From IMG/VR virus record IMGVR_UViG_2529292911_000009: 44,421 nucleotides of DNA. One strand, written 5' to 3'. Source of the DNA: a virus. Its lineage: Duplodnaviria; Heunggongvirae; Uroviricota; Caudoviricetes. A model generated the notes under the pieces. The model saw only the letters and a list, made by a program, of their open reading frames with translations, did not search any database and was not told the origin of the DNA. Position numbers and translations under genes: made by a program. The stretch's first letter is position 1, and every line of letters begins with the position of its first letter. This document shows, piece by piece, positions 26,221 to 26,530 of the stretch.

Positions 26221-26295
26221 TGGAGCGGGTAGCGGGAATCGAACCCGCATCATCAGCTTGGAAGGCTGAGGTAATAGCCATTATACGATACCCGC
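26221..26295 (-). tRNA. tRNA-Gly (anticodon UCC)
   Basis: Read by hand as a cloverleaf: acceptor GCGGGTA, anticodon loop CUUCCAA, T loop TTCGATT, 3' CCA encoded. Near-identical to E. coli glyT as recalled. Confidence 0.8.
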
Positions 26296-26298
26296 ATA

Positions 26299-26374
26299 TG
26301 GTGCCGACTACCGGAATCGAACTGGTGACCTACTGATTACAAGTCAGTTGCTCTGCCTACTGAGCTAAGTCGGC
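26299..26374 (-). tRNA. tRNA-Thr (anticodon UGU)
   Basis: Acceptor GCCGACT/AGTCGGC, anticodon loop CUUGUAA, T loop TTCGATT, discriminator A, CCA encoded. Confidence 0.7.
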
Positions 26375-26376
26375 AC

Positions 26377-26453
26377 TGGACCGCCACCGGGGACTCGAAC
26401 CTCGCACACTCAACTTAAAGGGTTGACGCTCTTTCCTGATGAGCTAGTGGCGG
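26377..26453 (-). tRNA. tRNA-like gene, anticodon loop CCUUUAA (nominally Lys UUU), atypical
   Basis: Cloverleaf can be drawn (acceptor CCGCCAC/GTGGCGG, D stem GCTC/GAGC, T loop TTCGAGT, CCA) but it has C at position 33, C1-G72, U73 and one T-stem mismatch. Confidence 0.45.
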
Positions 26454-26454
26454 C

Positions 26455-26530
26455 TGGTGGCCCTTGCTGGATTTGAACCAGCGACCTGGCGATTATGAGT
26501 CGCTCGCTCTCACCACTGAGCTAAAGGGCC
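26455..26530 (-). tRNA. tRNA with CAU anticodon, ileX-like (tRNA-Ile2 lysidine type) or Met
   Basis: Acceptor GGCCCTT, anticodon loop CUCAUAA, T loop TTCAAAT. Closely resembles E. coli ileX as recalled. Confidence 0.7.

Follow-up and report, generated by a model that had tools for sequence, protein, structure and literature searches.

A variant four-tRNA cassette behind the Q antiterminator gene of a lambda-like Escherichia coli prophage

Introduction

Lambdoid phages have long been known to carry cassettes of tRNA genes after the antiterminator gene Q. The ileZ-argN-argO cassette of the Stx phages (933W, Sakai VT2, Stx2a_F349), which encodes Ile2(CAU), Arg(UCG) and Arg(UCU), follows Q, pR' and tR' and precedes the toxin or lysis genes. 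In phages 21, SfI, Sf6 and ST64T it was an Asn(GUU)-Thr(UGU) pair that was described downstream of Q (PMC3636060).

Phage tRNAs were also considered in relation to nucleases that cleave the tRNAs of the host. In the reports on PARIS, host tRNA-Lys(UUU) is the prime target of AriB, and a variant tRNA-Lys of phage T5 rescues infection (PMC11464382, PMC12409363). The AriB site is placed at U36-A-A-U-C|A41; cleavage is lost with U39A and is impaired by A41C and by U16C. When the T5 Lys and Thr tRNAs were co-expressed, phage T7 was rescued and cells grew again at high induction. P2-OLD, the classical anti-lambda system, kills by cutting thrU. In an AriB/P2-OLD suppressor assay 245 phage tRNAs were tested (PMC12445682), and thrU supplied in trans was found to give little or no protection against P2-OLD.

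Results and Discussion

The window, by which we mean the whole 44,421-nt stretch of DNA that was analysed, carries the array within a lambda-like E. coli prophage integrated at serU. Four tRNA genes with 1-3-nt spacers had been proposed in the initial annotation to lie between Q and the lysis genes, and both ARAGORN and Rfam agree; the genes are all on the minus strand and fill 26221-26530 exactly, as follows.

26455..26530, minus strand: tRNA-Ile2 type (CAU), ileZ allele (ARAGORN, Rfam)
26377..26453, minus strand: atypical UUU tRNA (annotated tRNA-Lys) on the argN scaffold (ARAGORN, Rfam)
26299..26374, minus strand: tRNA-Thr (UGU), copy of host thrU with U20C (ARAGORN, Rfam)
26221..26295, minus strand: tRNA-Gly (UCC), host glyT copy in which one pair of the acceptor stem is U-A instead of C-G (ARAGORN, Rfam)

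ARAGORN, one of the predictors by which it had been suggested to check these genes, called all four and returned the anticodons CAU, UGU and UCC as originally read. Each gene has an encoded CCA end. What had been described as an atypical tRNA-like gene proved to be a 77-nt cloverleaf with the anticodon UUU. With RF00005 scores of 72.5 bits (CAU), 44.4 bits (UUU), 71.4 bits (UGU) and 65.6 bits (UCC), all above the gathering score of 29 bits, and E-values of 4e-14 to 2e-6, the four calls are far beyond chance. The intergenic spacers are G, GT and TAT (1, 2 and 3 nt). Upstream of the array lies Q, and downstream of it are two holins and an M15 endolysin.

26725..27420, minus strand: Q antiterminator gene (with the PGAP start, 26725-27414; PF06323, E 2.2e-89; PHROG 304)
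25172-25564, minus strand: holin (PF16931/PF05449/PF13539 and PHROGs 198, 217 and 465 cover the lysis genes, 24527..25564)
24907-25182, minus strand: second holin (Pfam, PHROG and RefSeq annotation)
24527-24904, minus strand: M15 endolysin (Pfam, PHROG and RefSeq annotation)

The RefSeq product name of the Q gene is "bacteriophage antitermination protein Q". In the gap of about 660 nt that separates the array from the holin a search for known RNAs gave sub-threshold matches only (CyaR-like, 23.5 bits), and about 530 nt of that gap had no homologue among phage records.

The arrangement of the array is already known and in itself ordinary, one of its members alone being of mild interest. Of 5426 complete E. 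coli genomes, 600 (11%) carry the array in annotated form. Hundreds of RefSeq genomes have it under the PGAP labels tRNA-Ile, -Lys, -Thr and -Gly, and it is also present in GenBank phage records such as PhiR47_1. Among the IMG/VR loci the order Ile2-UUU-Thr-Gly was found in 93 full arrays and further partial ones, Ile2-UUU-argO in 12 loci and Ile2-argN-argO in 6. The cassette is therefore modular, and represents a variant form of the one known from Stx phages, ileZ-argN-argO. The two have in common their slot, the same promoter-like element, an identical ileZ, the argN scaffold, close packing (1-13 nt) and encoded CCA ends. Their second genes differ, being UCG with U33 in the Stx cassette and UUU with C33 in the prophage array, which moreover has copies of host thrU and glyT instead of argO (UCU) and is not followed by toxin genes; PPompW-type prophages hold an intermediate array, ileZ-UUU-argO. 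Thus, while position and promoter-like element are those of the Stx cassette, the gene content is not, and because only ileZ is unchanged and argO is absent, the array is a variant of that cassette rather than a strict member. The initial annotation had set the repertoire apart from the Ile/Arg set of Stx phages, and it does differ, but ileZ and argN have homologues in its first and second genes. With phages 21, SfI, Sf6 and ST64T the prophage shares tandem tRNAs right after Q, a Thr(UGU) gene and an over-use of ACA by the phage; the SfI tRNAs, however, have bodies unlike those of the host, with U39 replaced, whereas the prophage Thr gene is essentially host thrU, and an Asn gene is absent.

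Four candidate signals of transcription were located around the array.

26713..26741, minus strand: TTGCAA-17-TATATT, a pR'-like late promoter that overlaps Q at its 3' end (consensus scan, 9/12 matches)
26638..26661, minus strand: tR'-like intrinsic terminator, a bidirectional hairpin upstream of the array (fold of -16.8 kcal/mol)
26540..26568, minus strand: predicted sigma-70 promoter of the cassette, -35 TTGCAA, 17-nt spacer, -10 TATTAT (consensus scan and alignment)
25933..25953, minus strand: first strong intrinsic terminator 3' of the array (-12 kcal/mol and U7, z -2.7)

The tR'-like hairpin (z -4.24, with 0 of 200 shuffles folding as well) lies 108 nt upstream of the array, and the pR'-like promoter and the terminator that follows it near Q would fit a lambdoid pR'-tR' unit; matches to isrK/isrJ at 26636-26709 were sub-threshold. 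Directly in front of the array is a predicted dedicated sigma-70 promoter which is kept across diverged flanks. When 10 upstream types were aligned, any two of which show more than 15 differences over 70 positions, the TTG of the -35 element and the complete TATTAT were the sole invariant columns; in the prophage TATTAT is followed by the G+C-rich CCTGCGCCC and then by tRNA position +1. Transcription would start at this promoter, whose end lies 9 nt ahead of the first tRNA, or alternatively at pR' with Q-mediated read-through of tR'. With a conserved promoter of its own the array would not require late transcription, and expression in the lysogen becomes possible. A strong terminator had been said to follow the array. 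Directly behind it there is none, since the fold of the next 56 nt is not better than that of shuffled sequences (z -0.84), and the strong hairpins lie 268 nt downstream, past tRNA-Gly, and 108 nt upstream.

Given this modularity and the conserved promoter that belongs to the cassette itself, prophage tRNAs may alter the tRNA pool of the lysogen without induction. It might even be that the cassette serves chiefly lysogenic conversion, being expressed from its promoter in the uninduced lysogen and raising host translation of AT-rich, horizontally acquired genes, although we consider this to be rather doubtful. Such a role would accord with a conserved sigma-70 promoter that has a G+C-rich discriminator and lies downstream of tR', with the retention of the array in defective-looking prophages (frameshifted integrase and tape-measure genes, truncated tail fibre) and with the presence of the array in 11% of complete genomes. 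The evidence for the promoter is, however, comparative, and the same observations are compatible with a benefit to the phage as well.

The first gene, with anticodon CAU, is identical to Stx-phage ileZ at 76 of 76 positions and to host ileY at 70 of 76 (6 changes). PGAP labels it tRNA-Ile, while ARAGORN and some phage records, going by the anticodon alone, label it Met. Its acceptor stem, GGCCCTT/AAGGGCC, contains C4-G69 and C5-G68, the pairs by which TilS of E. coli is reported to recognize its substrate (PMC1635315). By these features it is of the tRNA-Ile2 type and not an elongator or initiator tRNA-Met, and conversion of its C34 to lysidine is predicted. The Thr gene matches E. coli K-12 thrU at 75 of 76 positions, U20C in the D-loop being the only difference, and the Gly gene matches K-12 glyT at 73 of 75, with one compensated pair; among the 93 sister arrays the modal Thr allele (63/93) is thrU exactly and the modal Gly allele (60/93) is glyT exactly. 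Near-identity to a chromosomal tRNA, as expected of captured host genes, thus characterizes both. Recent capture of the host thrU-tyrU-glyT operon was nevertheless rejected, as no flank homology to it was found around the phage Thr and Gly genes; in comparison with host thrU, glyT, ileX and ileY the prophage array has 1-3-nt spacers, lacks the host flanks and has no tyrU between Thr and Gly. In the sister arrays pi of the four tRNAs is 0.005-0.017 and the flanks are of many unrelated types. This low diversity amid unrelated flanks, and the missing homology to the host flanks, mean that the tRNA bodies have been kept by selection or gene conversion.

The codons that these three genes would read are over-used by the prophage. 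Against a host sample of 47 K-12 genes, which are not genes of the actual host strain, AUA rises from 2.4 per 1000 codons to 11.3 in early and 5.5 in late prophage genes, ACA from 4.7 to 18.8 and 11.1, and GGA from 6.7 to 12.6 and 11.5, about 1.7 to 5 times the host sample (p<=0.0013 each). Since AUA, ACA and GGA are enriched to this extent, three of the four genes are best explained by supplementation of rare codons, and we propose that the array is a compact, self-promoted tRNA operon which most likely relieves rare-codon limitation of phage genes (probability roughly 0.6), a supplementation that may extend to other acquired genes in the lysogen. It had been suggested that the array adjusts the translation of late genes and that the codon usage of these genes be compared with that of the host. 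The over-use of the three served codons is in line with this; the excess, however, is larger in early than in late genes, the array does not serve AGA and AGG, whose over-use of 5 to 10 times is the highest among rare codons, and it appears to have its own promoter. The literature searched contained no reports on expression, processing, aminoacylation or fitness effects of the cassette.

In the supplementation that we favor, RNase P would cut each 5' end and 3' exonucleases would trim trailers of 1-3 nt, as the spacers and encoded CCA ends suggest. Ile2, its CAU converted to lysidine via TilS, would then read AUA, Thr (UGU) would read ACA and Gly (UCC) would read GGA and GGG, so that, judged from sequence, the three would be extra doses of low-copy host-type tRNAs for A-ending codons. 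As the host genes for Thr and Gly are carried almost unchanged, dosage is argued for rather than immune evasion, and in this the two genes contrast instructively with the T5 and SfI tRNAs, which have diverged.

The UUU tRNA calls for a separate account. U33 is near-universal in tRNAs; this 77-nt tRNA (sequence stretch ...GTCAACCCTTTAAGTTGAG...) has C33, as well as U73, C1-G72 and one A51.C63 mismatch, and its anticodon loop is C32-C33-U34-U35-U36-A37-A38. It is homologous to Stx argN (UCG), with 80-84% identity and differences that preserve pairing, among them compensatory changes at pairs 7-66, 27-43 and 30-40. In the argN/UUU alignment pairing is kept in 96.4% of cells, both partners have changed in 3 pairs, and a covariation score of 0.20 compares with <=0.09 in slid controls. 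The change from argN to the UUU gene comprises C35U and G36U in the anticodon, plus U33C, and it is by these three substitutions that an argN (UCG) would have been turned UUU. When compared with host lysT, the UUU gene showed no similarity beyond the anticodon and universal tRNA positions. U34-U35-U36 are reportedly the main LysRS identity set (Tamura 1992, McClain 1990). The gene accordingly has the lysine anticodon; it lacks U33, the A73 that LysRS prefers, and descent from a bacterial tRNA-Lys. From known identity rules a tRNA with U34, U35 and U36 should be a LysRS substrate; whether the UUU tRNA is active at present is uncertain. Saks, Sampson and Abelson are said to have made a functional tRNA-Thr(UGU) from a tRNA-Arg(UCU) by one anticodon change (Science 279:1665, 1998). 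Here likewise one scaffold bears two identities, UCG and UUU on argN, and UGU and UCU on the thrU scaffold (phage SerU-LTIIb), but theirs was a laboratory construct, whereas these are natural phage alleles with a putative function of the switched form.

A pattern search that required U33 and looked for other anticodon forms of the scaffold returned six Stx-type argN loci only, and the forms seen are UCG with U33 and UUU with C33. In all copies seen C33 and UUU are fixed, while position 32 varies. Intact alleles are the commonest (66/120 loci); two lesioned alleles, with U8C (16/120) and with a 1-nt deletion in the D-stem (14/120), no longer score as tRNA in Rfam, ileZ being intact in those loci. 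Among 798 genome copies of the gene 279 share 99% identity or more with the intact allele, and RefSeq alleles whose identity matches the lesioned forms were left unannotated by PGAP. Stx2c phages hold a remnant of the scaffold with the anticodon arm deleted, and two loci (L019 and L031) hold degenerate additional copies of it. With many lesioned alleles and inconsistent calls, the UUU "tRNA-Lys" is a caution for automatic annotation.

These observations make it quite conceivable, at somewhat less than even odds, that the UUU gene is a decaying argN relic, non-translational after three loop substitutions and held between useful neighbours. Its C33, U73 and A51.C63 and its 44-bit score point that way, as do the highest diversity among the four genes (pi 0.017, compared with 0.005 for CAU), the recurrence of independent lesions, with little over a third of genome copies close to the intact allele, and the degenerate extra copies. 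The low score, however, is a property of the scaffold (A51.C63, unusual D-loop), since the Stx argN allele of AP012530 also reaches just 43 bits, and the odd anticodon loop was rejected as its cause. Decay is also opposed by the stem substitutions relative to argN, all of which keep pairing, including the three double compensatory pairs, by the fact that C35U and G36U are exactly the changes from ArgRS to LysRS identity, by the constancy of C33 and UUU beside a variable position 32, and by the predominance of the intact allele.

The replacement of host tRNAs targeted by anticodon nucleases had been offered as a further role for the array. This fails for Thr and Gly, which are host-like and keep all published AriB/P2-OLD determinants, the Thr gene retaining UAAUC|A, U16 and both CNG motifs. 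Nuclease-resistant Thr and Gly tRNAs were rejected, the two being thrU and glyT bar one base and one base pair, respectively. The suggestion fits the UUU tRNA only, whose anticodon, as expected of a replacement tRNA, is the target of AriB, PrrC and (for one cut) P2-OLD, and which, unlike Thr and Gly, carries substitutions at nuclease positions (G39, U40, U41, C16, C33, no CNG), so that none of the published AriB, P2-OLD and PrrC determinants is retained. At the AriB site it reads U36-A-A-G-U-U41, along with C16, and it has no CNG at 28-30 or 40-42, the motif that P2-OLD requires. PrrC cuts 3' of U33 (PMC2610378), where the UUU tRNA has C33 in every copy seen. One may therefore ask if it could be a nuclease-proof spare lysine tRNA against PrrC, RloC, PARIS-AriB and P2-OLD, by which AAA and AAG would stay readable, a role which we consider unlikely. 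Late genes show no enrichment of AAA, and the tRNA-Lys(UUU) family of the host is multi-copy (at least 5 genes), so that lysine codons give no reason for the UUU tRNA, and codon use thus offers no other ground for a phage tRNA-Lys. The diverged Asn(GUU) and Thr(UGU) tRNAs of P21/SfI-type phages, with U39 replaced in the same slot, lend some analogy (PMC3636060). Yet an Arg-tRNA ancestry by itself accounts for all the differences at nuclease sites, which for that reason are not evidence of selection for resistance; the two common alleles with lesions and the Stx2c remnant do not suggest a maintained spare; and C33, U73 and A51.C63 may impair decoding, charging or EF-Tu binding. The T5 variant tRNA-Lys resembles the UUU tRNA in its nuclease-target anticodon and altered anticodon stem and D-loop, with A39, C41 and C16 in T5 and G39, U40, U41 and C16 here. 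The UUU tRNA differs in that it belongs to a temperate phage, descends from an Arg tRNA, has C33 and is often lesioned, its resistance being a prediction. That an argN was naturally re-anticodoned into a lysine decoder, to serve temperate phages as a nuclease-proof spare for the only lysine tRNA of the host, is a fairly improbable proposal; if it were true, no anti-defence tRNA of this kind would have been described before from a lambdoid prophage, and immune pressure would have driven a switch of tRNA identity in nature.

For the array as a whole, we think it most improbable that it is an anti-defence device against tRNA-cleaving systems (PARIS, P2-OLD) instead of a codon supplement. Its adjacent Lys(UUU) and Thr(UGU) genes would correspond to the two prime AriB targets, T5 tRNAs for the same two amino acids are those that act together, and P2-OLD acts on thrU. 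But the Thr gene departs from thrU by a single D-loop change and is, unlike that of T5, no variant of the host tRNA, most sister copies being identical to thrU; the Gly gene likewise matches host glyT, and in the available parts of the sources neither Ile2 nor Gly(UCC) is among the reported PARIS/P2-OLD targets.

Among species representatives the UUU anticodon arm was found in E. coli and Shigella flexneri only. As a separate observation, C33 of the UUU tRNA sits at the exact phosphodiester that is cut by PrrC and RloC.

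Genomic setting of the tRNA array

The window is a lambdoid prophage at serU of E. coli CV839-06, a piglet strain, with a 100% match. The initial annotation had placed four tRNA genes between Q and the lysis genes, and this observation was confirmed. ARAGORN agreed exactly with the coordinates and with the anticodons CAU, UGU and UCC, and all four genes scored above the gathering score of the Rfam tRNA model (29 bits). Spacers of G, GT and TAT separate the genes in transcription order, and CCA is encoded at the 3' end of each gene, as claimed. The gene described as atypical and tRNA-like is the UUU gene, which has a complete cloverleaf. 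Q lies upstream of the array and the lysis genes downstream, all on the minus strand.

Features in and around the array
Upstream of the array, minus: DUF968 gene, then RusA gene, then Q
26725-27420, minus: Q (PF06323, E 2e-89)
26741 to 26713, minus: pR'-like promoter overlapping the end of Q
26661-26638, minus: strong hairpin terminator, tR' (-16.8 kcal/mol, z -4.2)
26568 to 26540, minus: second promoter-like site, between tR' and the tRNAs
26530-26455, minus: tRNA CAU (ARAGORN; Rfam tRNA model 72.5 bits)
26453-26377, minus: tRNA UUU (ARAGORN; Rfam tRNA model 44.4 bits)
26374-26299, minus: tRNA UGU (ARAGORN; Rfam tRNA model 71.4 bits)
26295-26221, minus: tRNA UCC (ARAGORN; Rfam tRNA model 65.6 bits)
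tRNAs to holins, minus: ~660 nt without a credible ORF, with strong terminators at 25953-25933 and 25604-25589
After this gap, minus: two holins and an M15 endolysin

Of 5426 complete E. coli genomes, 600 carry the full array (80% or more of the 361-nt query), with its genes labelled tRNA-Ile, -Lys, -Thr and -Gly by PGAP, and the same array is present in the phage records vB_EcoM-606R7, vB_EcoS-689R5 and PhiR47_1. The UUU gene occurs in 798 genomes; among species-representative genomes, E. coli and Shigella flexneri alone have its anticodon arm. In composition the cassette is a variant of the tRNA cassette well known after Q in lambdoid phages, and annotations of it are already widespread. The literature searched contained no paper on this particular array, whose one testable curiosity is a re-anticodoned argN (an Arg tRNA gene of Stx phages) with C33.

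Modularity and transcription

Loci sharing the T arm of the UUU/argN scaffold were compared. The order Ile2-UUU-Thr-Gly was represented by 93 full arrays and additional partial ones, Ile2-UUU-argO(UCU) by 12 loci and Ile2-argN(UCG)-argO by 6. Upstream of these arrays we distinguished at least 10 sequence types, with more than 15 differences from one another over 70 positions. The only columns invariant in all of them were a -35 TTG and the full -10 TATTAT; 17 nt separate the hexamers, and the element ends 9 nt upstream of tRNA position +1. Six promoter-like sites were found against 2.7 expected, so that a match in a single sequence is weak evidence; since the hexamers are conserved across diverged flanks, it is likely that a dedicated promoter drives the array. 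The array could thus be transcribed independently from its own promoter and also by Q-modified polymerase starting at pR'. The short spacers and encoded CCA ends suggest that RNase P separates the products and that exonucleases trim the 1-3-nt trailers.

The suggestion that a strong terminator follows the array was only loosely right, because the 56 nt immediately 3' of tRNA-Gly fold no better than shuffled sequence; one terminator lies 268 nt downstream, and another (tR') precedes the array. The ~530 nt from tRNA-Gly to the holin leader (25690-26220, minus) hold no credible ORF, and no homologue was found in 50,697 phage records. A minus-strand terminator (25933-25953), which faces a plus-strand one (25882-25906), ends this stretch, and a sub-threshold CyaR-like match lies at 25928-25997. 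One possibility for this stretch is a 3' external transcribed spacer, another a small RNA belonging to the tRNA operon. The short pR'-to-tR' transcript (26636-26709, minus) gave sub-threshold matches (22-25 bits) to isrK and isrJ, Salmonella Gifsy-1 RNAs produced at the equivalent position. At a PPompW-type locus (L102 2677-2853) the sRNA STnc100 (75.5 bits) lies downstream of the tRNA array.

The CAU, Thr and Gly genes and codon use

The CAU gene is identical to Stx-phage ileZ (76/76) and matches host ileY at 70 of 76 positions. C4-G69 and C5-G68, which are needed by E. coli TilS (PMC1635315), are both present, and the gene is Ile2-type, matching PGAP; the "Met" label from ARAGORN and some phage records is based on the anticodon alone. 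The Thr gene differs from K-12 thrU by a single D-loop change (U20C) and the Gly gene from glyT by a single compensated acceptor pair. Among the 93 sister arrays (IMG/VR), the most frequent allele is exactly the host gene both for Thr (63) and for Gly (60). No trace of the host thrU-tyrU-glyT flanks survives around them, so the tRNA bodies have been held constant, by selection or gene conversion, while their surroundings were replaced.

Phage SerU-LTIIb (KU052038, 5042-5117 of the compared locus) carries a tRNA-Arg(UCU) on a thrU scaffold altered by G35C plus two other changes, apparently a second anticodon switch (Thr to Arg) in lambdoid tRNA cassettes. This phage, also at serU, has two tRNA cassettes, and LT-IIb toxin genes downstream of its lysis genes.

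Codon use per 1000 codons in 47 K-12 genes (host sample) and in 26 early and 25 late prophage genes
AUA: host 2.4, early 11.3, late 5.5
ACA: host 4.7, early 18.8, late 11.1
GGA: host 6.7, early 12.6, late 11.5
AGA: host 0.9, early 9.0, late 4.9
AAA: host 32.2, early 50.0, late 31.6

The AUA, ACA and GGA differences between prophage and host sample are all significant, and therefore the three host-type tRNAs match codons over-used by the phage, in a loose fit. The same codon argument was made for the Thr(UGU) of SfI (PMC3636060). A role in late-gene translation had been proposed; the over-use agrees with it, but early genes show the larger excess, and the most over-used codons, AGA and AGG, are served by no tRNA of the array. 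Lysine codon use gives no reason for a phage tRNA-Lys. Codon supplementation is thus plausible for three of the four genes.

Descent and state of the UUU gene

The UUU tRNA folds into a full cloverleaf that begins with the pair C1-G72; its D-loop has nine bases, position 33 is C rather than U, the discriminator is U73, and A51.C63 is the only mismatch in its T stem. Sequence comparison revealed no resemblance to host lysT; the scaffold is that of Stx-phage argN (80-84% identity). Pairing is preserved at every stem difference from three argN alleles: pair 7-66 is C-G, U-A or U.G, pair 27-43 is U-A, C-G or U.G, and pair 30-40 is A-U or G-C. In the argN/UUU alignment pairing holds for 96.4% of cells and both-sided changes occur at three pairs; covariation scores 0.20, compared with 0.09 or less when partners are slid. 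Because this alignment is small and lesioned alleles were left out, the constraint that it shows is one on the scaffold and not on each copy.

The anticodon loop has changed from CUUCGAA in argN to CCUUUAA (U33C, C35U, G36U). These changes were rejected as the cause of the low Rfam score, since a similarly low score, 43 bits, is obtained for the argN allele of AP012530. That allele (L001 1501-1577; also L137) carries G3.U70 in its acceptor, the major AlaRS identity pair, together with U7.G66 and A51.C63, and the 933W argN allele is fully paired.

That the UUU gene is a relic is a serious prospect, if one we would not bet on. Its diversity is the highest of the four (pi 0.017 vs 0.005-0.013), and two lesioned alleles, one with U8C and two wobble changes (16 loci) and one with a one-base D-stem deletion (14 loci), give no Rfam score at E <=0.01, while the neighbouring ileZ is intact at the same loci. 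UUU alleles that match these lesioned ones in identity lack PGAP annotation in RefSeq genomes, an Stx2c phage retains a UUU-scaffold remnant without the anticodon arm, and of the 798 genome copies only 279 reach 99% identity with the intact allele. Against decay, however, the intact allele is the most frequent (66 of 120 loci), position 32 varies whereas C33 and UUU are invariant across copies, and the stems are maintained. Furthermore, by established identity rules C35U with G36U is exactly the switch from ArgRS to LysRS identity. An ordinary but weak Lys decoder takes up the probability left by decay and by the nuclease-proof spare considered below. Two IMG/VR loci (L019, L031) carry a fifth, degenerate argN-scaffold copy 3' of tRNA-Gly, called "Val aac" by ARAGORN with no Rfam score.

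Possible replacement of nuclease-targeted tRNAs

It was also proposed that the array replaces host tRNAs cut by anticodon nucleases. PARIS AriB cleaves host tRNA-Lys(UUU), Thr(UGU) and Asn(GUU) at U36AAUC|A41, cleavage is abolished by U39A and impaired by A41C and U16C, and PARIS is neutralised by the T5 variants of these three tRNAs (PMC12409363). P2-OLD, a classical anti-lambda system, amputates the thrU anticodon arm at paired CNG motifs, with rescue by phage Thr variants and little or no protection from extra host thrU (PMC12445682). PrrC cuts 3' of U33 (PMC2610378).

The phage Thr gene, being thrU itself, retains UAAUCA and U16 as well as both CNG motifs and therefore cannot be a resistant variant; the Gly gene was ruled out on the same grounds. 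In contrast, SfI/P21-type phages carry in the equivalent slot Asn(GUU) and Thr(UGU) genes with bodies unlike the host's and U39 replaced. Replacement is thus possible only for the UUU tRNA, which has U36AAGUU41, C16 and C33, lacks the CNG motif, and is predicted to escape AriB, P2-OLD and PrrC. As these differences all stem from its Arg-tRNA ancestor, they are not in themselves evidence that escape was selected for, and a nuclease-proof spare seems unlikely. The initial interpretation was therefore partly supported.

Other features of the prophage

Two integrase genes, one beside serU and one beyond asnT (41111-42161, 43507-44421), and the tape-measure gene (~11029-14251) are frameshifted per RefSeq, from whose record the window differs by two 1-nt indels; the prophage is probably defective, or else the assembly has indel errors. 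Within 1-4438 a truncated tail-fibre gene (~2951-4438) is followed by ~1 kb of unannotated sequence (1942-2950), a tail-fibre assembly gene fragment, potB and potA, and the opposite prophage end is at serU (42188-42277). These flanks are not adjacent in K-12, which suggests that prophages have rearranged with one another. The nin-like region holds a hok/sok type I toxin-antitoxin (29945-30270, minus), whose sok RNA (30095-30270, Rfam 120 bits) overlaps the hokD ORF. The sRNA DicF (76.7 bits) lies just 5' of dicB, with ydfB and ydfC (37712-37763 and 37938-38126, plus), a Qin-like division-inhibition and immunity region.
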